Shown: positions 2,661 through 21,363 of the stretch, in pieces
How positions within the stretch are numbered: the first letter of the stretch is position 1
Layout: the number at the start of each line of letters is the position of its first letter
Origin: a virus
Lineage: Duplodnaviria; Caudoviricetes
IMG/VR virus record: IMGVR_UViG_3300011438_000036
Coordinates: 1-26,107 of that record
DNA: 26,107 bases
Strand: one strand, 5' to 3'
Program-made: the position numbers and the translations under genes
Notes under the pieces: model-generated
Database searches by the model: none
Seen by the model: the letters and a program-made list of their open reading frames with translations, nothing else
What the model was told of the DNA's origin: nothing

Positions 2661-4975
2661 TGTCGAAGCGCGGTCAGCGAGTCATCGCCGAAGCTCGACG
2701 CAGCCGTAGCGCCAAACCGATCCACCTCTCCGCGCCCAAGGGGCAGCCGCTGCTCGGCCCGGGTCTCGGCACCCTCCTCCAGCCCGGCTCGAGCACGCCG
2801 TCGGCGACCGGCGAGATCGGCGTCCCCGGCAATCTGAATCTCTCCGGCTTCCTCACGGGCGAAGACTACAACCACGATCTCGACGGCGCGCCCGCGATGG
2901 CCGTCTATGACGAGATGCGCCGGTCCGACGCGCAGGTCGCGGCCATCCTGCTGATGTGCACGCTGCGCATCAAAGCCGGTACGTGGAACATCACCCCCGC
3001 GACCGACGACGGCGAAGACCAGGCGGTCGCCGACTTCTGCAAAGCGGCGCTGCTCGACGACGAGGCGATGTCGATCCAGTGGTCCGACGTCCTCGACAAC
3101 GCGCTCCTGAAGCTGCCGTTCGGCTGCTCGGCGCACGAGAAGGTCTGGTTCGTCGACGAGACCGGCGCGCTCCGGCTGAAGAAACTGGCGCCGCGACTGC
3201 CGCGCACGTTCTATCGCTGGCTCGAGGATCCGCAGACGAACGAGCTCGCCGCGCTGCAGCAGTTCGCGCCGCGCGGCGGGTCCTACGGCTTCTTCGACAT
3301 CCCGAAGGACGCCCTCGTCCTGCACGTGCTCAATCGCGAGGGCAACAACTACTTCGGGCGCTCGATGCTGCGCGCGGCCTATCCGCACTGGTGGCGGAAG
3401 CAGCAGCTCTACAAGATCGACATGGTCAAGCACGACCGCTGGGGCGTCGGCATCCCGGTCGCGAAGCTCGACAAGGACTACAACACCAACGACACGCCGA
3501 TCGACAAGATCGAGCAGGCGCTCTCCGGGCTCCGGTCGTATGAGCGCGGGTATGTGATCGAACCGTGCGGCGTGACGATCCGGCTGCTCATCCCGGAGAG
3601 CGGCGGCAAGGGCGGGACGGACGCGCTCGGCTCGATCGAGCACCACAACATGCTCATCGCCCGGAGCGCGATCCAGGGCTTCGCCGCGCAGGGCGAGCAG
3701 GCGCACGGGTCCTTCGGCGCCGCCGCGATCACGTTCCAGGCGTTCGAAGACGCCGAGCAAGGGACGGCGCGCGAGCTCGCCTCGGAGTTCCGGATGCAGG
3801 TGCTGAAGCCGCTCTGCGAGAACAACTTCGATATGTCGGGCGGGCGGAAGACGCCGAAGCTCGAGTGCACCGGCCTCGGCAAGATCGACATCAAGGACGT
3901 CGCGCCGGCGCTCAAGTCCCTCGTCGACGCGAAGCTGCTCACGCCCGACGACACGCTCGAGGACTTCATCCGCACGGTCGGCAAGCTGCCGCCGCTGCCC
4001 GAAGAACTGCGCGGCCAGGACCGGACGCCGATGGTCGCCGTGCCGGGCAACCCCTTCGATCCGAACGCGGACCCGAACGCGGACCCAGACGACGCCCCCT
4101 CGAAGAACACGCCCGGCAAGACGCAAAAGAAGAAGCCAAAGGTCGACGCCGCGAAGGTGCGGTATAGCGAGGGCGCGCGCGCCTTCGCGCGGGAACCGAA
4201 CGACCTCGAGCGCCGCGTGTTTAATTGCCACCAGGTGCCCGACACACTCGACACCGAGAAGGCGCGCCTGACGCGTGTCGTCGCGGGCCTCCGGAAGCAA
4301 CACCTGCAGCAGCTCGCGACGTCGATCGCGAAGAAAGACGCGCGGAAGAGCACCGGCGCGTTCACGGACATCCGGCCCGACCAGATCGCGCCCGTCGGCT
4401 TGGCCGATATCACGGCCGTCATCCGCACGTCGCAGGACGTGATGGCGGACTACGGCGCCGACCAGGTGCGCGCCGAACTCCAGAAGCAAGGCCGCTTCCC
4501 CACCATCACCGCGCACACCGCAGCCGAGTCGAAGAAGACCATGAAGTCCGCGCTCACCTCGAGCGCGAAGATCACGGCCGGCAAGGTCGCGACGCAGTGG
4601 CGGGACCTGGCGCTCGAGAACGCGCTGCGCTTGCGGCGCTCCGGCCTCGTCGGCCAGGCGCTCGTCGACGCCATCATCGCGGAGCTCGACGACGACCTCG
4701 AAGTCGGGCTCGGACACGCGCTCGGCGGCGAAGTGAACGAGGCCTTCGGGCTTGGGCGCGCCGTGACCGCCGGCCAGCTCACCGACGAGATCGAGAAGGC
4801 GACGTACTCCTGCCTGCTCGACGCGAGCTCGTGCGACCCGTGCATCGCGCTCGACGGCAAGGAGTTCATCGTCGGGACGCCGGAATACGACGCGGCGATG
4901 CCGCCCTATCGGAAGTGCGACGGGCGCGACAGCTGCCGCTGCGTCTACATCTACACGCTGAAGACCACCCCGTAA
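2660..4975 (+). CDS. portal protein (DUF935/Mu gp29-like) fused to a MuF-type head morphogenesis domain
   Basis: Position after terL. Portal motifs YDEMRRSDAQV, FGCSAHEKVW, NYFGRSMLRAAY, DRWGVGIPV. Low-complexity linker, then a MuF-like end YSCLLDASSCDPCIALDG...PP...CRCVYIY. Confidence 0.85.
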   Translation: MSKRGQRVIAEARRSRSAKPIHLSAPKGQPLLGPGLGTLLQPGSSTPSATGEIGVPGNLNLSGFLTGEDYNHDLDGAPAMAVYDEMRRSDAQVAAILLMCTLRIKAGTWNITPATDDGEDQAVADFCKAALLDDEAMSIQWSDVLDNALLKLPFGCSAHEKVWFVDETGALRLKKLAPRLPRTFYRWLEDPQTNELAALQQFAPRGGSYGFFDIPKDALVLHVLNREGNNYFGRSMLRAAYPHWWRKQQLYKIDMVKHDRWGVGIPVAKLDKDYNTNDTPIDKIEQALSGLRSYERGYVIEPCGVTIRLLIPESGGKGGTDALGSIEHHNMLIARSAIQGFAAQGEQAHGSFGAAAITFQAFEDAEQGTARELASEFRMQVLKPLCENNFDMSGGRKTPKLECTGLGKIDIKDVAPALKSLVDAKLLTPDDTLEDFIRTVGKLPPLPEELRGQDRTPMVAVPGNPFDPNADPNADPDDAPSKNTPGKTQKKKPKVDAAKVRYSEGARAFAREPNDLERRVFNCHQVPDTLDTEKARLTRVVAGLRKQHLQQLATSIAKKDARKSTGAFTDIRPDQIAPVGLADITAVIRTSQDVMADYGADQVRAELQKQGRFPTITAHTAAESKKTMKSALTSSAKITAGKVATQWRDLALENALRLRRSGLVGQALVDAIIAELDDDLEVGLGHALGGEVNEAFGLGRAVTAGQLTDEIEKATYSCLLDASSCDPCIALDGKEFIVGTPEYDAAMPPYRKCDGRDSCRCVYIYTLKTTP
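4061..4084 (+). repeat. 2 x 12-bp tandem repeat in the portal-MuF linker
   Basis: CCGAACGCGGAC twice, encoding PNAD-PNAD. Confidence 0.8.
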
Positions 4976-5000
4976 CGACCTTCGACGAAAGGATCGCCCC

Positions 5001-5282
5001 GTGAGCGACGACAAGATCCAGCCGTTCAAGCCACCGCACAACAACCTGCCGATCATCGGCGTGCACTGCCACCCGCTCGGGATCGCCGTCCAAGTGCCGA
5101 TGGAGTGCCGGTGCGCGACGCCGGCGACGCCGCTCTTCATGGTGTCGCTGACACACGTCATCCAGTGCCCGAAGTGCAAGGCGAACTACCGCATTGGGAA
5201 GGTGGCGTTCGAGATCGCGACGGGCAACTGCGAAGTGCACATCGCGCGCGTCGTCGAGCAGGCGGCGCCCGGGGTCAACTGA
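5001..5282 (+). CDS. small zinc-ribbon protein
   Basis: ECRC...QCPKC cysteine pairs; AAAGGA SD before GTG; TGATG coupling to the next gene. Confidence 0.65.
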   Translation: MSDDKIQPFKPPHNNLPIIGVHCHPLGIAVQVPMECRCATPATPLFMVSLTHVIQCPKCKANYRIGKVAFEIATGNCEVHIARVVEQAAPGVN

Positions 5283-5494
5283 TGGCCACCATCAATCTCA
5301 ACGTCGGAGACAGCCACGAAGCCAACGGCGGCCAGACCCTCGTCTTCTCGTGGCGAGACCGTTTGCGCGTCCTGGTCGGTCGCAGCCTCGAGGTCCACAT
5401 TCAGCAGCGGGTCAGAATCACGGGCGTGCACCCGAACCACGGCGCGCGCATTGAGCTCGGAAAGGTCACCGTTCAGACTCAGTGGACGAAGTGA
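5282..5494 (+). CDS. hypothetical protein (70 aa, MATINLNVGD...)
   Basis: ATG overlaps the upstream stop (TGATG) and its stop overlaps the next ATG. It is the 3' part of the listed ORF 5105..5494. Confidence 0.6.
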   Translation: MATINLNVGDSHEANGGQTLVFSWRDRLRVLVGRSLEVHIQQRVRITGVHPNHGARIELGKVTVQTQWTK

Positions 5495-5715
5495 TGTCAG
5501 ACGACGAGCCAGTGGAGACCAACGGCAATCTCATCAGCCCCTACGAAGTCGCGGCCCTCTGCGGTGTCGACTACGAGACTGTGCGCAAGTGGATGGTGTC
5601 CGGCGCGCTGCCGTTCGTCGAAGTGGGCCCGCGGTTCGTCCGGCGCGTCTATCGCCGGCACGCCGAGGCCATGATTCGTCGTCCCGACGACCAGAAAAAA
5701 ACACCCGCTATCTAA
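5494..5715 (+). CDS. excisionase/MerR-like winged HTH DNA-binding protein (HTH_17-like)
   Basis: LISPYEVAALCGVDYETVRKWMVSGALPFVEVG..VRRV matches the Xis-type HTH pattern; TGATG coupling. Confidence 0.8.
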   Translation: MSDDEPVETNGNLISPYEVAALCGVDYETVRKWMVSGALPFVEVGPRFVRRVYRRHAEAMIRRPDDQKKTPAI

Positions 5716-5716
5716 T

Positions 5717-5814
5717 ATCTGTGCGCGCGCGAGCACAGATCCCGCACTTCTCCCGTCTTTCAGGAAAGACCCCCTTGCGGCCCGCACGTCGCCCCGCGCA
5801 CGCTGGCCGACGTG
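5717..5814 (+). promoter_or_regulatory. intergenic control region: two palindromes and a putative leaderless promoter for the protease-capsid operon
   Basis: ATCTGTGC-N8-GCACAGAT (5717-5740); GTCTTTC-AG-GAAAGAC (5755-5770); TTGCGG (5775)-18 nt-CACGCT (5799)-7 nt-GTG (5812). Confidence 0.45.
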
Positions 5815-6900
5815 ACGCGACCCGCGGGGTTGATTTCGCCCTTTCTCCTGCCCGTGCTCCTCAGCACGCCGGCCGAGGGCCAGGCCGCGTCGAGCTGGAA
5901 TCAGATCGCGCGCGTCGGCGCGTGGTGGGATCCGCGGTACGGTGACTTCGAGCTCTCGCGCGAGGACCTCGCGCAGATGCTCACCAACTTCAAGCACGTC
6001 TTTCCCCTGGCGCCGACCGAACTGCCGATGGACTACAACCACGGCACCTCGAAGCCGGACACGCCGGAGAAGGGCAAGGCCGCGGGCTGGTTCAAGGACA
6101 TGCAGCTCCGCGCGAACGGCGACGAGCTGTGGGCGCTCATCGAGTGGACGGCACCGGCCGCCGCGATGATCGCGAACAAGGAATACCGGTTCGTCTCGCC
6201 GACCTTCGCCTACGACTACAAGCACACGAACGGCCAGGAGCTCGGCACGACCCTCCTCGCGGCCGCGATCACGAACACGCCCGTCATCGAGGGCCAGACA
6301 CCCCTGGGCCTCACTCACCCCGGCGCGCGAGAGCGCACGCGACAGGAGATCGACATGCCGAAGCTGATCACGGTCAAGGACGTAGAGGGCAAGGACGTCA
6401 AGCTGTCGGCCGAGACCGTCGCCGAGATGGTGAAAGCGGCCGGCGTCGAGGGACAGCAGGACCTCTCGAAGCAGATCGGGGACCTGAAAATCGTCGTCGA
6501 TACCCAGGGGAAATCCATCGAGGCGATAAAAGGCGAGAACGTCGAGCTGAAGAAGCAGAACGACGCGCTCGTGCAGGCGGCGAAGACGGCCGACGCGACG
6601 GCCAAGGTCGAGAAGCTCATCCTGGCCGGCAAGGCCCTGCCCGTCGAGCGCGAGGGCCTCATCAAGCTCGCGCTCTCCAACGCGGACCTCTTCGAGGACG
6701 CGACGAAGCACCGTCCGGTGCTCGTCACCCTCAACACGGAACGCGGATCGGGCGCGCCCGGCGATGCGTCGCTGACGGGACAGCTTGAAGCGGCCATCAT
6801 CGAGGAACAGAAGCTGAACCCGAAGCTCTCCCGCGAGCAGGCGTCGACGCGCGCGCTCACGAAGAACCCGAAGCTCTACGACGAATCGGCCGCGCGATAA
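5812..6900 (+). CDS. Mu gpI-like prohead protease with C-terminal scaffold
   Basis: PMDYNH, KAAGW, LWALIEWT, EYRFVSPTF and AAAITNTP are Mu-like protease motifs, followed by a coiled-coil-rich C-terminal half. Confidence 0.9.
   Translation: MTRPAGLISPFLLPVLLSTPAEGQAASSWNQIARVGAWWDPRYGDFELSREDLAQMLTNFKHVFPLAPTELPMDYNHGTSKPDTPEKGKAAGWFKDMQLRANGDELWALIEWTAPAAAMIANKEYRFVSPTFAYDYKHTNGQELGTTLLAAAITNTPVIEGQTPLGLTHPGARERTRQEIDMPKLITVKDVEGKDVKLSAETVAEMVKAAGVEGQQDLSKQIGDLKIVVDTQGKSIEAIKGENVELKKQNDALVQAAKTADATAKVEKLILAGKALPVEREGLIKLALSNADLFEDATKHRPVLVTLNTERGSGAPGDASLTGQLEAAIIEEQKLNPKLSREQASTRALTKNPKLYDESAAR
6355..6900 (+). CDS. nested in-frame scaffolding protein (internal start)
   Basis: CAGGAG-atcgac-ATG at 6355, in frame, just after the protease domain, as in Mu I/Z. 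Confidence 0.65.
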   Translation: MPKLITVKDVEGKDVKLSAETVAEMVKAAGVEGQQDLSKQIGDLKIVVDTQGKSIEAIKGENVELKKQNDALVQAAKTADATAKVEKLILAGKALPVEREGLIKLALSNADLFEDATKHRPVLVTLNTERGSGAPGDASLTGQLEAAIIEEQKLNPKLSREQASTRALTKNPKLYDESAAR

Positions 6901-6932
6901 CCCGCGCGCCCCAACCTGCGAGGACGTGACCC

Positions 6933-7316
6933 ATGGCGTTTGAAGGCGCACTGCAAGCTCTGGTCGGTGTTTCGGCGAGCGCGGATCTCTCGGCGAAGCA
7001 GTTCCTGGTCATGAAGATCTCCGGCGTCGCGACCGTGACGGTCTGCGCCGGCGTGACCGACAAGCCGTGCGGCATTCTGCAGGACGCGCCCGCCAGTGGG
7101 TCTCCGGCGAACGTCGCCTTCTCCGGCGTCTCGAAGGCCGTCGCGGGCGGCACCGTCACCGCGGGCGACACGGTCGGCACGGACGCGAACGGCAAGGTCG
7201 TCACGTACGTGGAAGGCACCGACACGACCAAGTACCGCGTCGGCCGCGCGCTGACGAGCGGCGCCGCGAACGAGGTCATCTCGGTCCAGCTGATGCTCGG
7301 CGGCCGCCTGGCGTAA
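6933..7316 (+). CDS. capsid cement/decoration protein (DUF2190-like)
   Basis: 127-aa Gly/Ala/Val-rich protein (GILQDAPASG, AGGTVTAGDTVGTDANGK, VGRAL) between scaffold and capsid genes; GAGGA SD. Confidence 0.8.
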   Translation: MAFEGALQALVGVSASADLSAKQFLVMKISGVATVTVCAGVTDKPCGILQDAPASGSPANVAFSGVSKAVAGGTVTAGDTVGTDANGKVVTYVEGTDTTKYRVGRALTSGAANEVISVQLMLGGRLA

Positions 7317-7321
7317 TCGCC

Positions 7322-7498
7322 GTGCCGCTGGCCCGCGTGTCGTGCCCGGCGTGCGGTCGTCAAGTCTGTCGCGCGGACATCGCGACGGGCGCCGTGGAAG
7401 TGAAGTGTAGGTGCGGCGTGCTCGTGCGCCAGGACGGCGCAGAGCCCCCGCACATTGTTCGGCCCGAGTCCCTGAGACCTGCGCCGCTCTCGACGTGA
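7322..7498 (+). CDS. com: Mu Com-like zinc-finger translational regulator (58 aa)
   Basis: MPLARVSCPACGRQVCRADIATGAVEVKCRCG aligns by eye with Mu Com (IRCKNCNKLLFKAD..IEIRCPRC) and fills the gap between cement and capsid genes. It is the 3' part of listed ORF 7067..7498. Confidence 0.75.
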   Translation: MPLARVSCPACGRQVCRADIATGAVEVKCRCGVLVRQDGAEPPHIVRPESLRPAPLST

Positions 7499-7514
7499 GG
7501 AGCACAGGTCCATG
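7466..7514 (+). promoter_or_regulatory. SD-sequestering hairpin in the major capsid leader, with tandem GAG motifs
   Basis: GACCTG (7476-81) pairs with CAGGTC (7505-10) and GCTC (7486-89) with GAGC (7500-03), enclosing SD GAGGAG (7497-7502). GAGTCCC-T-GAGACC overlaps the 5' arm. Confidence 0.55.
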
Positions 7515-8471
7515 CCGCAGCCCACTCAAGGCGCCGTCCACCAAAACGTCCCCCTCGCGAACGTCTCGATCGCGTACATGCAGGACAACCGCGACTACGT
7601 CGCGACCCGCGTGTTCCCGATCGTCCCGGTCGACAAGCTGTCGAACCTGATCTACATCTTCACGAAGGGCGACTGGTTCCGCGACGAGGCGGTCAAGCGC
7701 GCACCCGCGAGTCAGTCCGCCGGCTCGGGCTACGGGGTCTCGACGACCTCGTACACGTGCGACACCTTCGCGTTCCACAAGGACGTCCCGGACGACATCC
7801 GGAAGAACGCCGACTCGGTCTTCAACATGGACCGCGAGGCGACGGAGTTCGTGACGTCGCGCCTGCTGCTCCGGCTCGAGAAGCAGTGGGTCACCGACTA
7901 CTTCACGACGTCCATCTGGGCGACCGACTCGACGCCCGCGGCGCTGTGGAGCGACTACGCCAACTCCGACCCGGTCGGCGATGTGCGGACCGCGATCCGG
8001 ACGATCAAGCTCAACACGGGCAAGACGCCGAACAAGTTCGTCCTCGGCTACGACGTGTTCATCAAGCTGGTCGACCACCCGGACATCCTCGCGCGCATCA
8101 ACGGCGGCGCGACGAACAGCCAGCCGGCGCTCGTCAACGAAGAGATGCTCGCGCGCATCTTCGGCGTCGACGAGGTCATGGTGTGCGGCGCCATCAACAA
8201 CACCGCGGCCGAAGGCGCGACGGTCGTGATGGCGTTCGTGCAGGGCAAGCACGCGCTGCTCGTGCACGTGCCGCCCGCGCCCGGACTGCTCACGCCGTCG
8301 GCCGGCTACACGTTCCTCTGGACCGGCATCTCGACGACGGGCCAGACGGTCGGCGTGCGGAAGTTTCGTATGGAAGACCTTAAGGCGGACCGCGTCGAAG
8401 GCGAGATCGCGTTCGACAACAAAGTCATGGGCACGGACCTCGGCTACTTCTTCGCGAGCGTGGTGGCGTAA
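7512..8471 (+). CDS. major capsid protein (lambda gpE-like family, HK97 fold inferred)
   Basis: 319 aa, position, strong SD and biased codons. Motifs LANVSIAY, VFPIVPV, WSDYANSDPVGD, PNKFVLG, HPDILARI, GYFFASVV. Confidence 0.92.
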   Translation: MPQPTQGAVHQNVPLANVSIAYMQDNRDYVATRVFPIVPVDKLSNLIYIFTKGDWFRDEAVKRAPASQSAGSGYGVSTTSYTCDTFAFHKDVPDDIRKNADSVFNMDREATEFVTSRLLLRLEKQWVTDYFTTSIWATDSTPAALWSDYANSDPVGDVRTAIRTIKLNTGKTPNKFVLGYDVFIKLVDHPDILARINGGATNSQPALVNEEMLARIFGVDEVMVCGAINNTAAEGATVVMAFVQGKHALLVHVPPAPGLLTPSAGYTFLWTGISTTGQTVGVRKFRMEDLKADRVEGEIAFDNKVMGTDLGYFFASVVA

Positions 8472-8707
8472 TGCCGACCTTTGTCGTCATTCGCCGCGAG
8501 TTCTCCGGCTATCAGGCGGGCCAGGTCGTCGACGCGTCGACCTGGCGCAACCTGAAAAACCTCTTGTCCTGCCGCCACGTGCGGGAGGCCACGGCCGACG
8601 AGATCGCGCAGCACGAGCTCGCGCGCGTGACCGCGCCGGAAGCGGCGCCGAAGACCGCCAGGCGACGGCGCCGCGCGGCGCCGAAGACCGCCACGATCCC
8701 GGCGTAA
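8471..8707 (+). CDS. small basic head-associated hypothetical protein
   Basis: TAATG coupling to the capsid gene; Arg-rich tail AAPKTA-RRRRR-AAPKTA. Confidence 0.65.
   Translation: MPTFVVIRREFSGYQAGQVVDASTWRNLKNLLSCRHVREATADEIAQHELARVTAPEAAPKTARRRRRAAPKTATIPA
8642..8693 (+). repeat. 19-bp direct repeat
   Basis: GCGGCGCCGAAGACCGCCA at 8642-8660 and 8675-8693. Confidence 0.8.
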
Positions 8708-8714
8708 CCACGCT

Positions 8715-9167
8715 ATGGGTCTCGGCTCCAAGAAACTCACCGCCGGCGCGAGGCGGTTCGCCGTCCTCACGCTGACCACGATCACGACGGCCGTGACCGG
8801 CGTCACGACGAACGGTGGGCCGTGGGGGGACCTGACCGACATCGTCGTCGCCACGTTTCAGGCGACGTTCACATACGGCTCGGGCGGCACGACCGCGAAG
8901 TTCTGGCTGCAGACGTCCTTCGACGCCGGCGTCACCTGGGTCGACGTCGCGAACTTCGCCTTCACCACGTCGACGGCGCGGACGATTCACAGCGTGCGCA
9001 GCGCGACGGCGGTCGCCGCGACCTACGTGGCCACCGACGGGACGCTCGCCGACAACACCATCAAGGACGGGCTGCTGGGCGACCGGCTGCGCGTGAAGTA
9101 CACGACGACCGGCACGTACGCCGGCGGCACCACGATTCAGATCGACGTCGTCACGAAGGCCTCGTAG
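8715..9167 (+). CDS. putative virion structural protein (beta-rich)
   Basis: Thr/Gly-rich, LQTSFDAGVTWVDV and RLRVKYT pattern of small beta-sandwich virion proteins; phage-like codon usage. Confidence 0.65.
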   Translation: MGLGSKKLTAGARRFAVLTLTTITTAVTGVTTNGGPWGDLTDIVVATFQATFTYGSGGTTAKFWLQTSFDAGVTWVDVANFAFTTSTARTIHSVRSATAVAATYVATDGTLADNTIKDGLLGDRLRVKYTTTGTYAGGTTIQIDVVTKAS

Positions 9168-9229
9168 GTCCTGAGCAGCTCGCTCGAGCCTTTCGGGTGG
9201 ACGAGGCGCCCGAATAAAGGAGTCCGGGA

Positions 9230-9595
9230 ATGGGAATCACCAGTAAACAGCGCGGCCGGCAGATCTTCGCGGGCGGATTCACGCCGCTCGTCACGGCCTA
9301 CGCCGCCGACGGCGCGATCGCGGCCGACACGGATCGGGTGGCGCTGATGACCAAGGCGGGCGTCGGGGCGTACACCCTGGCGGCGCCGGCGCGCGATGGC
9401 ATCCGCCTCAACATCATCAGCCGCACGGCCAACGCCCACGTCATCACGGCGACCGCGCTGGTCGACGACGGCGTGACCGGCGGCGCGAAGACCACGATGA
9501 CCTGCACGGGCGGCTTCGTGGGGAGCTCGATCGAGCTCCTCTCCTACGGCGGCAAGTGGAACGTCGTGAGCAAGAACGTGGTGGCCATCACCTAA
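9230..9595 (+). CDS. putative virion structural/decoration protein
   Basis: AAAGGAG SD; beta-rich, with YTLAAP..DG and a terminal GKWNVV pattern. Confidence 0.65.
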   Translation: MGITSKQRGRQIFAGGFTPLVTAYAADGAIAADTDRVALMTKAGVGAYTLAAPARDGIRLNIISRTANAHVITATALVDDGVTGGAKTTMTCTGGFVGSSIELLSYGGKWNVVSKNVVAIT

Positions 9596-9600
9596 CGCCG

Positions 9601-10077
9601 ATGCCGGACCACTACTGCACCATCGAGGACATCAACGGTCTGAACCCGCAGGTCCCGTTCGGGCCTGCGAGCAAGCCGTCGTCCGTCCTCGTGGAGAAGT
9701 TCATCGAGAACATTGCCGTCGAGATCGACGCGACGCTGGCCCCGATGGGTTATGTCACGCCGGTCGTCACCGGGGCGAACGCGCTGAACATCCTCCGCCT
9801 CCGGTGCGCGCAGGGGGCGCTCGGCCTGGCGATCGCGGTGCGGGAGTCCGGGGTCGCGCGTGCGAGCGAGGTTGCGAAGTCAAACCTATGGACGCAGCTG
9901 TTCGAGGCGTGGCTGAAGAAGCTGGGGAATCCCCAGGACGGGTACGAGTTGCCCGATGCGCCGCGGACGTCCGACCCGCTGCTCAAGTCCGGCGAGGACG
10001 TCTTCCGCAGCCACGTCGACAGCGACGTCGAGCGGTTTGTCACGAGCCCGGAGATCACCCGTGACCAGAGGCTCTGA
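9601..10077 (+). CDS. head-tail adaptor (Mu gp36/SPP1 gp15-like)
   Basis: N-terminal YCTIEDI, EIDATLAPMGYVTPV, position in the neck region. ATG 9601 preferred. Confidence 0.7.
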   Translation: MPDHYCTIEDINGLNPQVPFGPASKPSSVLVEKFIENIAVEIDATLAPMGYVTPVVTGANALNILRLRCAQGALGLAIAVRESGVARASEVAKSNLWTQLFEAWLKKLGNPQDGYELPDAPRTSDPLLKSGEDVFRSHVDSDVERFVTSPEITRDQRL

Positions 10078-10571
10078 TGCCGAGCGGGTCGATCGAGGCG
10101 GTCAAGGAGTCGCTGCAGCGCTGGCTCCGCTCGAGCCGGTTCGTCGATGCGATCGCCGCGGTCGATGCGCAGGCGGTCGCCGAGGGGCGGGACGACAACA
10201 CGCGCGCGACGCCCGTGCCGGACGCCGACGCCATCTTCACGACGGAGAAGCACTCGCTCGCGAAGTATCCGGCCGTCGAGCTCGTGAATGTCCGGGTCGC
10301 GTACGCGCCGGACACGGAAGCGAAGATTCGGGCGATCGAACTGGGCGTCGTCTTCTCGCAGGCGGGCGATGACGAGGCGCTCGTGACGCGCGACGTCGAG
10401 CGGCTCATCGAGGCGGCCGGCCAACTACTGCGCGGCTCGTTCCTCGACACGCGCGACGGCATCAAGCGGATCGAGCTCGCGAGCGAGGACTACAGCGAGC
10501 TCACGCCGGGTCAGGGCGGGACGTTCTTGCGCGGCGGCGAGCTGCGCCTGGCGATCGCGACGATCACGTAG
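10077..10571 (+). CDS. putative neck/tail terminator protein
   Basis: TGATG coupling, size, YPAVEL motif and position. Confidence 0.5.
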   Translation: MPSGSIEAVKESLQRWLRSSRFVDAIAAVDAQAVAEGRDDNTRATPVPDADAIFTTEKHSLAKYPAVELVNVRVAYAPDTEAKIRAIELGVVFSQAGDDEALVTRDVERLIEAAGQLLRGSFLDTRDGIKRIELASEDYSELTPGQGGTFLRGGELRLAIATIT

Positions 10572-10583
10572 GGAGATCTCGAT

Positions 10584-10937
10584 ATGGCGGTGCTGGCAGT
10601 CTCACAGATCCTGATCACCAAGATCGCGCAGACCCTCGCGGCCGCGGCGGGCGGGGGCGACAGCTTCCCGAACACCGGCAAGGAAGTCTTCGCCATTCGC
10701 AACGCCGGCAGCTCGATCACCCTCACGGCCGTCGCGAGCGGCGCGGTGTGCAACTACGGCCTCGCCGCCTCGACGGCCCATGACCAGGTGATCACGGTGC
10801 CGAACGACTCGGTCGTCTACCTCATCGGGCCGTTCCCGACGTTGCGGTTCAACGACAGCAACGGCCGGGTGCAGTTCACCTATTCCGCCGTCACGAGCGT
10901 GACGGTCGCCGTCTTCAGTTTGCCGCCGGCCGCGTAA
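10584..10937 (+). CDS. putative virion structural protein (beta-sandwich)
   Basis: GGGAG SD; GDSFPNTG, IGPFP..RFND.NG and TYSAVTSVTVAV pattern seen in small tail-region proteins. Confidence 0.65.
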   Translation: MAVLAVSQILITKIAQTLAAAAGGGDSFPNTGKEVFAIRNAGSSITLTAVASGAVCNYGLAASTAHDQVITVPNDSVVYLIGPFPTLRFNDSNGRVQFTYSAVTSVTVAVFSLPPAA

Positions 10938-10947
10938 GGAGACCCCG

Positions 10948-11364
10948 ATGCCGCGCTATCGCGTCCGTCAAGCGTTCCGTCACGAAGGCGTCGAGCTGTT
11001 GCCCGGCACCAGCGTCGATCTGCCCCGTCGCCTCGCGAATGAGTTGTCGCATCTCGTCGACGAGGTCGACCGCACGGGCAAAGTCCTCACGGGCGGCACG
11101 CCGGCGTGGACGCAGGCGCTCGATGGCGTGCGCGAGCACGAGAAGGCGTCCGTCCTCACGGACGAGCGCGTGAAGGCGGTCGCTGCCGTCCAGCGCGCGC
11201 AGCTGCTGGCCGAGGAGACCGCGGCGGACGCGAAGCAGGCGGCCGCGCAGTATCTGACGGCGCAGGCCGTCGTCGACGACATCGACCGCGCCGTCGAGGC
11301 GCTCTCTGGCCCGCCGGCAAAGCCGGTCGCCGTTCCCGCGCCGAAGTCCGGCGCCAAGGAGTAA
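10948..11364 (+). CDS. hypothetical protein with coiled-coil C-terminus
   Basis: TAAGGAG SD; N-terminal YRVRQAFRHEGVELLPG module; Ala-rich helix. Confidence 0.7.
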   Translation: MPRYRVRQAFRHEGVELLPGTSVDLPRRLANELSHLVDEVDRTGKVLTGGTPAWTQALDGVREHEKASVLTDERVKAVAAVQRAQLLAEETAADAKQAAAQYLTAQAVVDDIDRAVEALSGPPAKPVAVPAPKSGAKE

Positions 11365-11367
11365 GTC

Positions 11368-11961
11368 ATGTCTGTTGACGCCAGCAAGATCCACATGGGC
11401 CAGGCCCGCGTGTTCGTGGGCGGCACGAACCCGACGACCGGGACGCCCCCGACCCTCGCGGCGCATACCGCCGGCGTGCCGAGCGGCGCGCAGAGCGCCT
11501 TCGTCGATCTCGGCTTCACGCAGGGCGACACGACCTTCGAGATCATGGTCGAGAAGGGCCAGGTCAAAGCGGAACAGTCGCTCGCGACCGTCGCGCTCTT
11601 CACGGTCGGCGTCGCCGTGAAACTGCGCGGCACGATGCTCGAGCGCAACTACACGGCGCTCAAGCTCGCGATCGACGCGTGCATGTCGAGCGTCGACGAC
11701 GGATCGAAGACGCTCTTCTACGGCGGCGGCGGCACGGGCGTCCTCGCGCCGGCCACCCAGGGCGTGATGTTCACGGCGATTCAGCCGCAGGCCCCGACGA
11801 AGTACTTCGTCGGCGTCATCTACAAGGCCTTCACGCTGAAGGGCTTCTCGCTGACGTTCAACAAGGCGAAGGAATCCGTGATTCCGTTCGAGCTCGAGGG
11901 CATGACGGACAGCGCGCGGAACGCCGGCGACGATCTCTTCCAGTTCTTCATCGAGAAGTAA
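11368..11961 (+). CDS. major tail tube protein
   Basis: AAGGAG SD; KIHMGQARVFVG, DLGFTQG and FNKAKESVIPFELEG are typical siphovirus tube features; no sheath gene nearby. Confidence 0.8.
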   Translation: MSVDASKIHMGQARVFVGGTNPTTGTPPTLAAHTAGVPSGAQSAFVDLGFTQGDTTFEIMVEKGQVKAEQSLATVALFTVGVAVKLRGTMLERNYTALKLAIDACMSSVDDGSKTLFYGGGGTGVLAPATQGVMFTAIQPQAPTKYFVGVIYKAFTLKGFSLTFNKAKESVIPFELEGMTDSARNAGDDLFQFFIEK

Positions 11962-12513
11962 ATGGCGGGCGCGGTTGGACCTGGCACGCATGGGCTCACG
12001 TTCCGGCTGGAGATTCCCGGCGCGCAGCCGCTCGCGTTCGCCCTCTCGCGCTTCGCGCACGAGATCCAGGACTTCGTCCCGTTCTGGGAGGGCCCGTTCA
12101 AGACGCTCTGGTTCGCGAGTCGCAAGCAGGCCTTCGCGCTCGGCGGCGAGCCGGGCGGCCGGCTCTGGGCGCCGCTCTCCGACCGCTATCGCCAGTGGAA
12201 GCACCGGCACTACCCCGGCGCCGGCCCGCTCGTGCAAAGCGGACGGATGAAGGCGTCGATCACGACGCCGGACGCCTACGGATCGATCTGGCGGCCTGGC
12301 CGGCAGTCGCTCGAACTCGGATCGTACGTGCGATCCCGCGGGCTCTATCCGTATCCCGTCGCGCATCAACACGGCACCCGGCGCATGCCGGCGCGGCTGC
12401 CGCTCGCGCTCTCGCCCGGCATGGCTGGCGCGATCGCGAAGGACCTGCAGCGGCACGTCGTGCAGGCCTGGGTGAAACGGCGACGCGCGGAACGTGTCCT
12501 TAACCCGTCATGA
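11962..12513 (+). CDS. tail completion / virion morphogenesis protein (Mu gpG, P2 gpS-like)
   Basis: WAPLS, LVQSGRMKASI and YPVAHQHGTRRMPAR motifs. Confidence 0.8.
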   Translation: MAGAVGPGTHGLTFRLEIPGAQPLAFALSRFAHEIQDFVPFWEGPFKTLWFASRKQAFALGGEPGGRLWAPLSDRYRQWKHRHYPGAGPLVQSGRMKASITTPDAYGSIWRPGRQSLELGSYVRSRGLYPYPVAHQHGTRRMPARLPLALSPGMAGAIAKDLQRHVVQAWVKRRRAERVLNPS

Positions 12514-12528
12514 CCGGAGAGCTACCAG

Positions 12529-13062
12529 ATGGCCGACCCCACCGAGATCCCCCAGACCGCTGACCAGTTGCGCGCGAAGTTCGGCGCAGAGATCCTCGTC
12601 CCGCTGCCTGGTGGCGGCGCGTGGCGCTGCCGGCGGCCCGACATTAAAACGCTGCTCTTCGAGGACATCCTCTCGATGCCGGTGCTCGAGCAGGTGCTCG
12701 CGGATCTGCGCCCGCATGAGAACGGCAAGGACAAGACGCTGCAGGACCTCATCGAGGAGCCCGCGGCCGCGTCGCGCACGGGCGACTTCGTCCGGCGCTG
12801 GCTCACGCTCGCCGCGAAGAGTCCGCGCATCGTGCTCGAGGAGACGGACGCCGGGCCCGACGCGCTCTGGGTGCAGGACGTCCCGATCAATGTCCGCATG
12901 GCCATCTTTAACGCGACGTTCTGGGACGTGACGCCGGCGGCCGGGAGTGCGCCGGCGGCCGCGGCCTTTCCTAAAGGCCCCGCTGGGCCAGTTGCTGCGG
13001 GAGACGGCGCGGACGTATCACGTGCGCCCGAGCGCGCTGATGCACCTGACGGATCCCGTTGA
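12529..13062 (+). CDS. tail assembly chaperone (G-like)
   Basis: GGAG SD; lies between tube and tape measure genes; overlaps a second frame at its 3' end. Confidence 0.75.
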   Translation: MADPTEIPQTADQLRAKFGAEILVPLPGGGAWRCRRPDIKTLLFEDILSMPVLEQVLADLRPHENGKDKTLQDLIEEPAAASRTGDFVRRWLTLAAKSPRIVLEETDAGPDALWVQDVPINVRMAIFNATFWDVTPAAGSAPAAAAFPKGPAGPVAAGDGADVSRAPERADAPDGSR

Positions 13063-13201
13063 GGCACTCGACATGGATCTCGCGGCCATCGAACGCGATC
13101 GCGCGGACCGCCTCGAGGCGCGGAACGCGCTCGTCGACTTTGCGTGTGCGAGTGACGACCCGAAGACCGCGCTGCTGCTGGCGCTCCTGATTCGAGACTG
13201 A
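12968..13201 (+). CDS. T-like extension of the tail chaperone, reached by a putative +1 frameshift
   Basis: Open +1 frame FLKAPLGQLLRETARTYHVRPSAL...LLIRD ends 3 nt before the tape measure ATG and has no good start or SD. Confidence 0.65.
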   Translation, partial: FLKAPLGQLLRETARTYHVRPSALMHLTDPVEALDMDLAAIERDRADRLEARNALVDFACASDDPKTALLLALLIRD

Positions 13202-13204
13202 CCG

Positions 13205-15562
13205 ATGGGACTGACCGAAGATCTCCTGCTGCGCATCTCGGGCGAGGCGAAGGGCGCCGGCGACGCGCTCTCCGCGACGTCGAAGGGGGTGCTCGGCCTG
13301 GCCGAGGGCGCCGGCCTCGCGAATAACTCCTTCGTCAGCCTGGCCGCCGGCGTGGCGACGGGCACGATCGCCGTCGACGCGATCGGCAAGGTCGTCAATG
13401 AAGTCAAGCAGTTCGTCATCAGTTCCCTGGACGAGTGGAGCAAGCAGGAACTCGCGATCCGCCGCGTCGAGACGGCGATGGTCGCGCAGGGCACCGGGTC
13501 CAAGGCGCTGATCCGCGCCAACCTCGAGCTCGGCGAACAGTTCGCGCGCACGACCGTCTTCGCCGACGACGAGCTGCAGGCGATGACGGCCCTGCTCATC
13601 CAGGTCGGCAACGTCGGCCCGAAGGAGATGGAGAAGGCGCTGCAGGCCTCGACCGATCTCGCCGCCGGCCTCGGCGTCGATCTGCGCAGCGCGACGATGC
13701 TCGTCGCGAAGGCCTTCGAAGGCAACACCGACGCGCTCAAGCGGTACGGGATCGTCGTCGACGAGACGCAACTCAAGGCGAAGGGCGTCGCCGCCGTCCT
13801 CGAGGCGATTCAGGCGAAGTTCGGGGGCCAGGCGGCGGCCGAGGTCGACACGTACTCCGGTCGCGTGAAGCAGATCGGGAAGTCGTGGGACGAGGTCAAG
13901 GAGTCCGTCGGCGAGGGCCTCGCGCGCGCCGCCGCGCCGGGGCTGGCCCTCGCGACCGTCACCCTCGACGTGTACAACATTGCGCTGAAGAACGCCTTCC
14001 GCGAGCTCAACATGGCGCTTGATTTCTTTGAGGCCAACGAAAAAGCCAAGATCGCCGTCGTCAAATCCGCATGGCAGGACCTGCTTGCCTTGCCCGGGTT
14101 CGTGAAATACGGTCTCGGGTTCGGGCCGATGCCGGTCACGCCACAACCGGGCAAGCCGCGCCAGGGCGACATCGATCTCGCCCTCGCGGATACCCCGACC
14201 GGACCCGACAGCGTCGCGCGACTGGCCGCGGCGCGCAAGGAGCTCGATGCGCTGACGGCGTCGACGGTCGCCAAGATTAAAGCCGACCGCGAGCTCGGCG
14301 CGACCGACGACCTGCTCATGAAGACCTACGAGCTCTCGGGCGATGCCGTCCACATCCTGAACGGCTATCTGTCGGAGCGGGAGAAGAAGACGAAGGCCAC
14401 GGCGAAGGCCACGGCGAAGGCCACGGACGAGGAGAATGCGGTGCTGGTGAAGTCCAGCGCGCTGCTCCGCGACAACGCCATCAGCCTCCAGGAGTTTTTG
14501 AACACGCCGATTCGTCGCTACTTGACCGACGCCGGGGCCGCGACCGCGTCGTGGGCCGACTCGGTGCGGGTGCTCAACGGCCAGCTCGAGTACACAAACC
14601 TCTATCTCCCCGTCAGCACCACCGGCATGCAGGACTTCCTGAACACGGCCGTCAAGAACAAGGCCGCGACGGTCGATTGGGCGCAGTCGCTGGGCGGCCT
14701 GGGCGCGCAGATCGTGCAGATGTCGCAGGTCACGCGCGGCGCATTTTCGAACGTCCTCAGCGAGATCGGTCGCGGGATCACGGCGATCCAGATGTTCGAC
14801 ACCGGCATCCGCACCACGCAGAGCGCCTTCGAGGCGATGTCGCAGGCCGGAAAAATGTCGTTCTCCGGCCTGATGAGCGCCGGCACGGGGATCCTCAGCC
14901 TCTTCTCGAGCATCGTGTCGATGATTCCCGGCCAGTCGCCGGAAGTCTCGATGCAGGAAGGGCTCCTCAAACAGATCGGCATCTACGGCGGCACCGTCGA
15001 CCTGAAGGGGCTGTTCGACGTCTTCGGGAAGAGCGGCAACACGATCGGCAAGGGCGCGGGCAATGTCCAGCAAGCGAACAGCTACCTGCAGGCGCTGCTC
15101 GAGACCCTCGGCCCGAACCCGAGCGAGTTCGCGAAGATGTATGTGGCGCTCGTCCAGAACAAGATCCCGGTCGGCCTCGTGTCCGGGCACCAGGCGAAGA
15201 ATCCGAACCAGGGCGGCTGGTACGACGAGGACGAGACGCTCGAGTACTTCCGCTTCCTGCTCAAGCAGAAGGGCGTGCCTGGCTTCCGGCTCGGCGGCCT
15301 CGGCGACTTCGGTCCGGAGGGCACACTGGCGATGCTGCACGGCCGCGAGGCGAACGTGCCGCTCGACAAGCTCGGCCAGTTCATGAACGCGGCGGAGAAG
15401 GCCGCGCTCGGCCGCGAGCGCAGCGCGCCGAACATCGTCGTCCCCGTCGACGCGCGCGGGGCGCATTTCCGCGATCGCCAGTCCATCCGTGACCTGGCCG
15501 ACCTGGTCGCCGACGCGATCATGGAGCGGCAGCATCAGCTCTATCCGGTGACGGCCCGATGA
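13205..15562 (+). CDS. tail tape measure protein
   Basis: 785 aa, Ala/Gly-rich and helical; DLAAGLGVDL..A...VAKA..G...ALKRYGI core; C-terminal PGFRLGG..GTLAMLHGRE..VPL motif. Confidence 0.93.
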   Translation: MGLTEDLLLRISGEAKGAGDALSATSKGVLGLAEGAGLANNSFVSLAAGVATGTIAVDAIGKVVNEVKQFVISSLDEWSKQELAIRRVETAMVAQGTGSKALIRANLELGEQFARTTVFADDELQAMTALLIQVGNVGPKEMEKALQASTDLAAGLGVDLRSATMLVAKAFEGNTDALKRYGIVVDETQLKAKGVAAVLEAIQAKFGGQAAAEVDTYSGRVKQIGKSWDEVKESVGEGLARAAAPGLALATVTLDVYNIALKNAFRELNMALDFFEANEKAKIAVVKSAWQDLLALPGFVKYGLGFGPMPVTPQPGKPRQGDIDLALADTPTGPDSVARLAAARKELDALTASTVAKIKADRELGATDDLLMKTYELSGDAVHILNGYLSEREKKTKATAKATAKATDEENAVLVKSSALLRDNAISLQEFLNTPIRRYLTDAGAATASWADSVRVLNGQLEYTNLYLPVSTTGMQDFLNTAVKNKAATVDWAQSLGGLGAQIVQMSQVTRGAFSNVLSEIGRGITAIQMFDTGIRTTQSAFEAMSQAGKMSFSGLMSAGTGILSLFSSIVSMIPGQSPEVSMQEGLLKQIGIYGGTVDLKGLFDVFGKSGNTIGKGAGNVQQANSYLQALLETLGPNPSEFAKMYVALVQNKIPVGLVSGHQAKNPNQGGWYDEDETLEYFRFLLKQKGVPGFRLGGLGDFGPEGTLAMLHGREANVPLDKLGQFMNAAEKAALGRERSAPNIVVPVDARGAHFRDRQSIRDLADLVADAIMERQHQLYPVTAR
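14391..14426 (+). repeat. 3 x 12-bp perfect tandem repeat in the tape measure gene
   Basis: CGAAGGCCACGG three times, encoding KATA-KATA-KAT. Confidence 0.85.
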
Positions 15563-19749: not shown

Positions 19750-21363
19750 GTGATTGGCCGCACCGAGATCACGCCGCTTCCGCCGACCGCGTACAACACC
19801 CTCCCGAACCCGGCCGCCGGCGCGAGCTACGTGGATCCAGTCTTCGGCACGACGATCCGGCGGCTCACGGGCGACCGCAAGCCGGACGACATCTACGCGA
19901 GCAACATGCACTGGTCGGCCGACGGCAGCCGGTACGCGCATCTGGGATCGATCATCGACGTCGCGACCGGCAAGGTCACGCACAGCGTCCCGCTCGGCAG
20001 CAGCTCGCCGGACGCCGGCTTCGATCCCGTCGATCGAGACGTCTACTACTACCTCAGCGGCGCGACCATCAAGAAGGTCGTCCTCGGCGCGAGCGGCGCG
20101 AAGGTCGAGTCGACGTTCTACACGGCCAGCGGCGCGCTCGCCGGCTTCGGCGGCTCGGTCAACTGGTGGAGCGCGGACGGCCGCGTCTTCCTCGTCAACG
20201 TCGGCGGCACGGTGCGCGTCATCGAGAAAGCGACGCTGCAGCCCTACGCCGGCAGCATCACGGGCCTCGGCGGCGGCGGCTGGCTCGGTCTGGCGCCCTC
20301 GGGTAATCACGCGGTCGGCTACTGGGGCAACACCGGACGCGCCTGGACGATCGACCACGTCGCGAAGACGGTCGGTCCGCAGGTCCAGTTCTGGATCGGC
20401 CTCTGCGGCGATCACGCGGTCCCGATCTCCGGGTCGGACGGTAAGGACTACTGCGTCGTCATCAACTGCAACAACACCGACGGGATCTTCCGCGTGGCGG
20501 TCGACAACAACGCCGTCGGGAAGACCGAAGCGCAGCAGATGGCGCTGCCCGGCAACGTCCGGCTGATTCCCTCCGAGCCGCAATGGCAGAACGAGAAGCA
20601 CTTCTCGTCGGTGGCGCGGGGGCCGTTACAGGACTGGGCCTTCGTCTCGATGGAGTTCAAGGCCGGCGACACGTTCAACGCCACGCCGTCCGGCTGGCCC
20701 CCGTATCGACAAGAGATCGTCGGCGTCAACATTCTCACGGGCGAAGTCCGGCGCCTCGCGCACCATCGCTCGCGCTCGCTCAATGACGACTACGGCTATC
20801 AGCCGCGCGTCTCGTGCAGCTGGGGCGGCGAGGTCGTCGGCTGGGCCTCGAACTTCAATCAGGCCGGCGGCTCGGACATCTACGCAGCGATCGTCAGCGT
20901 GACGCCCACCCTGCCGCCTCCGCCGCCGTCGCCGGTCAACTGCGTCTGGAGTTCGTGGTCAGCCTGGGCGCCGGTCCCGGGCGATGTGATGCGCGAGCAG
21001 CGCACGCGCGTCGTGGCGACGCCGGCGTCGAACGGCGGCGTGCCCTGCGCGGGCGAGGCGATCGAGTTCCGCCCCGTGGCGGCGACGCCGATCGACTGCG
21101 TGCTCTCGCCGTGGACCCCGTGGAGCGCCTGGACGCCGGTCAGCGCGACGCAAGAGCAGCGCACGCGCACGCGGACGATCGTCACGGTCCCGGCCAATGG
21201 CGGCGCCGCCTGCGGGCCGCTGACGGAGACGGAGGCACGGCCGATCGTGGTCCTGCCGCCGCCGGCGCCAACGGTCCTGGCGCTTGGCACCTACATGGTC
21301 GCGGCGGGTGCCGAGGTCGCGCTCAAGGACGTCGCCGGCGTGCTGACCGTGATCGTGCGGTAA
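19750..21363 (+). CDS. beta-propeller-like protein with Pro linker and two thrombospondin type-1 (spondin-like) repeats
   Basis: TolB-like blade motifs (WSADGSRY, WSADGRVF, SWGGEVVGWASN), YVDPVFGTTIRRLT, RRLAHHRSR; PPPPPSP linker; two C-x-x-S-x-W-x-x-W...R-T-R...NGG-x-x-C units. Confidence 0.75.
   Translation: MIGRTEITPLPPTAYNTLPNPAAGASYVDPVFGTTIRRLTGDRKPDDIYASNMHWSADGSRYAHLGSIIDVATGKVTHSVPLGSSSPDAGFDPVDRDVYYYLSGATIKKVVLGASGAKVESTFYTASGALAGFGGSVNWWSADGRVFLVNVGGTVRVIEKATLQPYAGSITGLGGGGWLGLAPSGNHAVGYWGNTGRAWTIDHVAKTVGPQVQFWIGLCGDHAVPISGSDGKDYCVVINCNNTDGIFRVAVDNNAVGKTEAQQMALPGNVRLIPSEPQWQNEKHFSSVARGPLQDWAFVSMEFKAGDTFNATPSGWPPYRQEIVGVNILTGEVRRLAHHRSRSLNDDYGYQPRVSCSWGGEVVGWASNFNQAGGSDIYAAIVSVTPTLPPPPPSPVNCVWSSWSAWAPVPGDVMREQRTRVVATPASNGGVPCAGEAIEFRPVAATPIDCVLSPWTPWSAWTPVSATQEQRTRTRTIVTVPANGGAACGPLTETEARPIVVLPPPAPTVLALGTYMVAAGAEVALKDVAGVLTVIVR

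Follow-up and report, generated by a model that had tools for sequence, protein, structure and literature searches.

A Com-like gene and a predicted ribosome-site switch ahead of the major capsid gene in a GC-rich virus fragment

The DNA analyzed here (the window) comes from an uncultured phage and is a fragment of 26,107 nt, or 26 kb, with 68% GC and an estimated completeness of 34%. Between a head cement gene and the major capsid gene it carries a short ORF for a Com-like zinc-ribbon protein. Most likely this protein binds a small hairpin and thereby makes the capsid ribosome site accessible, which would put positive feedback on a late transcript that both genes share. In this mechanism the zinc-ribbon protein would recognize, within its own message, the CC-N2-GAG hairpin at 7468-7478; capture of the hairpin would open the overlapping stem, expose the capsid ribosome site and turn capsid translation on, and ribosomes finishing com at 7498 probably help to open the stem. 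Because com lies on the same transcript, capsid synthesis would be off at low transcription and released once late transcription is strong. The ORF, its distant similarity to Com, the motif and a 3-base overlap between hairpin and stem are observed; that the two folds exclude each other is computed. New here is that other relatives fill the com slot with an unclassified small helical protein, which has its own repeat leader and its own occluding stem. Since a tiny unrelated protein occupies the same slot in some relatives, the amount of capsid is probably controlled by protein-RNA switches that can be swapped. Com is known as a single case, regulating a toxic accessory gene in Mu; were capsid synthesis under its control, it would be a general late-gene switch for the timing and amount of the most abundant virion protein.

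The locus and its Com-like protein

Genes for terminase, a Mu-type portal, a Mu-like protease, cement protein, major capsid protein, tail and lysis are present in the window, and the features of the locus are listed in Table 1. The com-like GTG (7322), which has no obvious Shine-Dalgarno sequence (SD), follows the cement TAA by 5 nt, and the TGA of the ORF (7496-7498) overlaps the capsid SD GAGGAG (7497-7502), ahead of the capsid ATG at 7512. Relatives of the 7512..8471 product in cultured phages are also annotated as major capsid proteins. In a base-by-base check the ORF, the CxxC and CxC pairs, the TGA/SD overlap, the stem arms and the GAG boxes were all found where the first-pass annotation had placed them. 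Neither a promoter nor a fitting terminator was found at 4500-14000, and no Rfam family matched anywhere in the window. An RNA-library contig over 7435-7791 was set aside because contigs show neither transcription nor start sites.

Table 1. Features of the cement-com-capsid locus and of the helical-protein ORFs
Feature	Position	Strand	Basis
Head cement/decoration-type gene	6933..7316	+	Pfam Phage_cement_2, E 1.7e-7
Com-like zinc ribbon, 58 aa	7322..7498	+	Profile scores, Cys pattern
Single upstream GAG-N2-CC box	7442..7448	+	Sequence
Predicted Com operator	7466..7479	+	Motif from PMC6483171; fold
Predicted translation-inhibition stem over SD GAGGAG (7497-7502)	7476..7510	+	Minimum-energy and centroid fold
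Major capsid protein, predicted target	7512..8471	+	PHROG 1005 major head protein, E 5e-87
Helical-protein ORFs	L094:3749-3898, L164:1675-1788, L290:3769-3915; family also L349-L428

Elsewhere in the window, the portal-protease interval (5001-5715) holds a Cys-rich ORF (5001-5282) with weak zinc-ribbon matches and an excisionase-like HTH gene (5482-5715). At 9168-9229 a GC-rich leader forms two small stem-loops before the SD of ORF 9230, and a Com-type site is absent from it. After the lysis genes, a 537-aa protein (19750-21363) bears C-terminal thrombospondin type 1 (spondin-like) repeats (PF19028, E 1.8e-10), which are unusual in phage.

The com-like ORF comprises 58 codons, with CxxC at residues 8-11 and CxC at residues 29-31 (Cys 8, 11, 29 and 31); the zinc-ribbon part spans residues 1-39, and the C-terminal tail is encoded by the sequence of the RNA switch. 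An N-terminal CCCC finger (zinc binding putative), a length of about 60 aa and a disordered tail are traits of Com found in this protein. The claimed resemblance to Com is borne out by custom profiles and not by Pfam: the best of four Pfam matches was Zn_ribbon_Com (PF10122), at 14.2 bits (E 0.03) versus a cut-off of 22.9 and so below the gathering threshold, and the best PHROG match, a 'translational regulator' family, was also sub-threshold (E 0.074). On a profile of 12 other Com-like proteins the ORF scored 15.5 bits, whereas 1000 shuffles with the Cys fixed reached 8.8 at most. With a profile of 89 distinct IMG/VR Com-like sequences, gathered by a pattern containing E[IV]KC and hence biased toward the window protein, the score was 24.9 bits, against a maximum of 11.6 in such shuffles (none of 2000 as high) and 9.0 for the next unrelated segment of the window. 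The CxC second knuckle occurs in 2 of these 89 sequences, and RQV stands where Coms keep basic-Leu-Leu after CxxC. An Atlas feature match (0.92) to a cluster that is 73% PF10122 was treated as a lead only. An AlphaFold model built from five sequences showed a four-strand ribbon over residues 1-42 (pLDDT 75).

Two SNPs in the ORF, at 7357 and 7360 in contigs of two other studies, are both synonymous third-position changes, and GC in the finger codons is 0.85 at third versus 0.59 at second positions. Homologue searches with the ORF found no close homologues; a phmmer search of 1.84 billion representatives matched three repeat-rich Cys proteins, which were rejected as homologues. Foldseek against BFVD gave no match at E<=0.001, and structure and PDB sequence searches returned generic zinc ribbons only. 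From these sequence data we read the ORF as a real, divergent Com-like gene outside formal Pfam membership.

Predicted operator hairpin and occluding stem

In the Mu mom work (PMC6483171), SELEX with Mu Com yielded a bipartite GAG(N)2CC motif, in agreement with the site preference that the first-pass annotation had given, and the CC(N)2-3GAG bound by Com lies in a C-G-closed loop that adjoins and partly overlaps the mom inhibition stem. The hairpins studied there had 6-nt loops, and Com binding is reported as the activator of mom. In the window, the boxes lie at 7442 and 7466-7479 as claimed, but the second box of the latter is GAGACC, that is GAG-N1-CC, so that 7466-7479 reads as a symmetric GAG-N1-CC-N2-GAG-N1-CC. 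The predicted operator consists of GA, then a 3-bp stem (7468-7470/7476-7478) closed by C-G around a 5-nt loop (7471-7475) that ends in GA (CC-N2-GAG). The C-G-closed CC(N)2-3GAG hairpin loop is thus found at 7468-7478, with a loop of 5 nt versus 6. A paired-hairpin scan of the window returned it as the only Com-type site within a leader; a window-wide Com regulon was rejected, the other four of the five paired sites being intragenic or on the minus strand. The GAG-N2-CC box at 7442-7448 is outside any Com-type hairpin, was missed by that scan and is a possible second, weaker site, as judged from its sequence. Of 5000 shuffles, 0.6% had three GAG-N1-2-CC boxes within 7409-7511; a paired Com-type hairpin is expected by chance at 0.5-0.8% per leader (4000 leader shuffles).

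The arms of the occluding stem are GACCTG (7476-7481) with CAGGTC (7505-7510) and GCTC (7486-7489) with GAGC (7500-7503). The hairpin proposed to hide the SD came out as the minimum-energy fold in each of the four windows tried; only in the 46-nt window, however, was its z-score notable (-2.31), the longer windows giving unremarkable values (0.61, -0.64 and -1.08). Opening positions -15 to +3 at the capsid start costs 14.5 kcal/mol, the highest of 24 starts tested in the window and rank 6 of 221 distinct capsid-family leaders, window included, among the matches listed; with a longer fold window the capsid leader ranks 12th overall and 8th of 57 GC-rich leaders among the same matches. A translation-inhibition stem over the start signals of the target, with an adjoining operator, is thereby present as a prediction.

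The 3' strand of the operator hairpin (7476-7478) forms the first three bases of the inhibitory arm, and hairpin and stem are predicted by folding to be mutually exclusive. The probability of the operator hairpin was 0.0001-0.016 in unconstrained folds and 0.78-0.98 with the ribosome site held open. In four fold windows, forcing it made the ribosome site 2.4-5.4 kcal/mol cheaper to open; a cost of 7.5-9.9 kcal/mol remains, so binding alone may not free the site fully. The lack of a close homologue means that there is no covariation for the window stem. Pooled com sites had Watson-Crick pairs in 45 of 97 cells (mean 31.7 and maximum 47 in 5000 shuffles), with related rows included. The Mu-like geometry that had been proposed gains support from these computations and from one independent locus, described below.

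Capsid relatives and com at other virion genes

Viral, metagenome and genome collections supplied the capsid loci (the best 80 of 566, 550, 87 and 456 confirmed matches). Together with the window these came to 303, of which 285 had a start that could be called; 221 were distinct and had 400 nt of upstream sequence. A single-protein viral scan with the window capsid found no relatives. Among the matches listed, the cement-com-capsid layout recurred in one of 220 relatives, L096, which is the same phage as L258 and has a complete 69-kb genome (G706); its capsid is 54.5% identical to that of the window. The Com of L096 is recognized by Pfam (Com, E 8e-4) and PHROG (gpCom, 8e-6), no second Com-like gene occurs in G706 beyond the one at the capsid, and a homologue search with the L096 ORF found none. 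A stem of its own buries the capsid SD (z -2.5), and the com-like ORF runs through it. The locus differs in sequence from the window; its 5' arm reads GAG-N-CC-GAG without the spaced hairpin form, and its alternative hairpin forms poorly even with an open ribosome site (P 0.01-0.21). In a quick tree of 53 capsids the window, on a long branch, and L096 fell in different supported clades amid relatives without an insert, which suggests from sequence that their lineages gained com separately. A pattern combining operator and capsid start matched 34 loci, of which 33 were non-capsid and the remaining one (L258) was L096 again.

Among the matches listed, a cement gene was detected in 170 relatives, and 75% of these have no inserted gene and a gap of at most 29 nt. 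Com-type hairpins were not enriched across capsid leaders (2 of 221 listed versus 1.7 expected). In L302 (2935-3000) a very stable stem (z -4.5) buries the capsid SD, and the 5' arm of this stem contains a Com-type hairpin that differs from the window's in two stem pairs; com is absent from the 5.9-kb fragment, and given the lack of enrichment this site may be due to chance. No com was found near L302, L287, L008 or L298, on fragments only 9-16% complete. Rfam returned nothing but one tmRNA on 20 related loci, and in runs with small shares there was no divergent cover of the switch. About 30 freshwater relatives (L014, L030, L052, L117, L337 and some 25 more) carry a compact Com-like subfamily, PRCWRC...C.RCKA, which closes the structural block 2.6-4.3 kb after the capsid start; several of these genes are followed by GTG-type rather than GAG-type boxes, perhaps reflecting altered specificity.

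Between cement and capsid, five of the 221 loci among the matches listed (L094, L164, L290, L327 and L115) have instead a 38-50-aa ORF with an amphipathic LIRLAKG...W pattern, also seen in L292 and L305, for which no Pfam or PHROG family matched. Downstream of it, L094, L164 and L290 have a leader with repeats and a strong stem over the SD, with opening-cost ranks of 1, 2 and 4 of 221 among the matches listed and z-scores of -2.3 to -3.3; in these three the ORF ends about 85-125 nt short of the capsid start and upstream of the stem. Four capsid-slot members have no leader, so the helical cassette is not always complete. L290 shares a three-member capsid clade with the com-bearing L096 in the quick tree. 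Median opening cost was 16.2 kcal/mol in five leaders with a small gene plus leader and 5.1 in 214 without, a post hoc grouping. In the best 80 of 91 loci from a viral scan for this family, at least two copies of C(T/A)CGC follow 37 of 65 distinct helical ORFs listed and precede 8 (5.6 in shuffles); the helical ORF usually has such repeats and an SD-burying or terminator-like stem after it. The gene after the helical ORF had a median opening cost of 14.6 kcal/mol in 61 loci listed, not GC-matched, and 29 of the 31 annotated downstream proteins from these 61 were major head or tail proteins. We infer RNA binding by the helical protein from the layout alone, and with its repeat leader it is a candidate second protein-RNA switch. 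An Atlas match to Med26 (0.87) is below lead level and was rejected.

For com itself, a codon pattern gave the best 120 of about 170 viral loci, 101 of them distinct with an open finger. The downstream gene was taken as the longest ORF starting within 450 nt, which 87 loci had and which was annotated for 68 of them, the other 19 having short flanks; the 68 include relatives of one another, and any small gene lying in between was passed over. Among these 68 listed loci, com preceded 26 methyltransferase or Mom genes, 24 head, packaging or tail genes (four of them major head), nine other or unknown genes and nine without a match. The first-pass annotation had the switch rewired here to capsid synthesis: the downstream gene is indeed the major capsid gene, but 'here' understates the spread, with com before virion genes at 24 of the 68 loci listed. 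Com-type hairpins lay downstream of 45 and upstream of 11 of 95 com loci listed (1.9 in shuffles), and the strict form 27 downstream and 9 upstream (0.7 in shuffles); L506 has the same one-base-spacer form as the window. By eye, many com hairpins overlap terminator-like stems and some overlap SD stems. Genome surveys with PF10122 had low yields (0/5, 1/401 and 2/301). In L242, L243, L283, L434, L464 and L471, tandem GAG..CC boxes come after com and make up the 5' arm of a terminator-like stem, which precedes scaffold, head or tail genes and is a candidate antitermination form.

Alternative explanations and known systems

The main rival is translational coupling, by which ribosomes ending at the TGA at 7496-7498 would melt the stem and re-initiate at 7512, the protein sequence being irrelevant. 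A stop codon inside the stem and over the SD, an ORF that starts 5 nt after the cement stop without an obvious SD, and an L096 ORF that likewise crosses its stem are what one would expect from it. Mu com also traverses the mom stem, however, and yet Com binding is the activator reported in PMC6483171; moreover, coupling leaves the operator match unexplained, most cement-bearing relatives listed (75% of 170, above) have no inserted gene, and the small ORFs of L094, L164 and L290 end upstream of their stems. We consider coupling on its own unlikely. Less probable still is a decayed or unrelated zinc-ribbon ORF next to a chance hairpin in 68% GC sequence. It fits the sub-threshold family scores, the generic zinc ribbons from fold and PDB searches, the weak fold z-scores and a layout found in one of 220 relatives listed, but it is at odds with SNPs that are synonymous only (2/2), with the codon-position GC of the finger, and with the joint occurrence of protein, motif and overlap, repeated in L096.

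A protein that binds and represses, or one whose main targets lie in the two thirds of the genome that the contig lacks while the stem tunes capsid level, seems the most improbable of the three. The contig is only 34% complete, and many com loci use terminator-like rather than SD stems; but with the operator reaching into the 5' arm, binding is predicted to destabilize the stem, and complete G706 has its sole Com-like gene at the capsid. Profiles for Mom and methylases (phrog_1384, 67 and 56) found nothing in G000 (34% complete) or in G706 (complete), so that no mom-like gene was found in the complete relative, but the claimed absence cannot be shown for the 34%-complete contig.

Activation by the Com-like protein remains the preferred reading, and the window system would work like Com/mom yet is not a com-mom operon. 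Shared with Mu are the small four-Cys finger with a disordered tail, the placement of the switch inside the com coding region and the C-G-closed CC-N2-3-GAG loop (PMC6483171) adjoining or overlapping a translation-inhibition stem. In contrast to Mu, the target is the major capsid gene and not a DNA-modification gene, the protein falls under the PF10122 cut-off and has a CxC second knuckle, the operator has one-base spacers, a 3-bp stem and a 5-nt loop, and the com stop overlaps the target SD. Operator and stem share three bases and exclude each other in the window, whereas in the Mu fold forcing the hairpin shifts the opening cost by less than 1 kcal/mol. The com-methyltransferase cassettes of B3, SuMu, Phipami28 and Mcat1 likewise have com directly before the regulated gene and tandem GAG..CC boxes, but their target is accessory, whereas that of the window is an essential high-copy virion gene. 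In the cultured Clostridium phages vB_CpeS_BG3P (L280:2501-2715) and LPCPA58 (L281:2501-2699), a com-like ORF, unannotated in the records, GAG boxes and a long, strong SD-burying stem precede the tape-measure gene, a tail gene rather than a head gene; no paper on this cassette was found. These cassettes offer a tractable test system, and the 190-bp cassette of the window is directly testable in a reporter.

More generally, we tentatively propose that interchangeable plug-in cassettes (a tiny RNA-binding protein, an operator and a ribosome-site or terminator stem) put positive feedback on the most abundant virion genes, with Com as one type and the unrelated helical protein of about 35 aa with C(T/A)CGC leaders as a second in the same cement-capsid slot; this would be a widespread, undescribed layer of late-gene control. 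Capsid gating by Com, if it occurs, could bear on the order of assembly and on the concealment of capsid from host sensors, and two unrelated protein-RNA pairs in one slot would give small, orthogonal translational activators. A published survey of RNAs associated with com and of small helical proteins that partner them may exist; it was not found in the open-access literature. In that literature, subscription journals not being covered, only the Mu mom work (PMC6483171) was relevant. This paper places the mom start at a GUG within the inhibition stem; in L279 (704-734), the RefSeq ATG of Mu mom (704) is 30 nt upstream of an in-frame GTG inside that stem.
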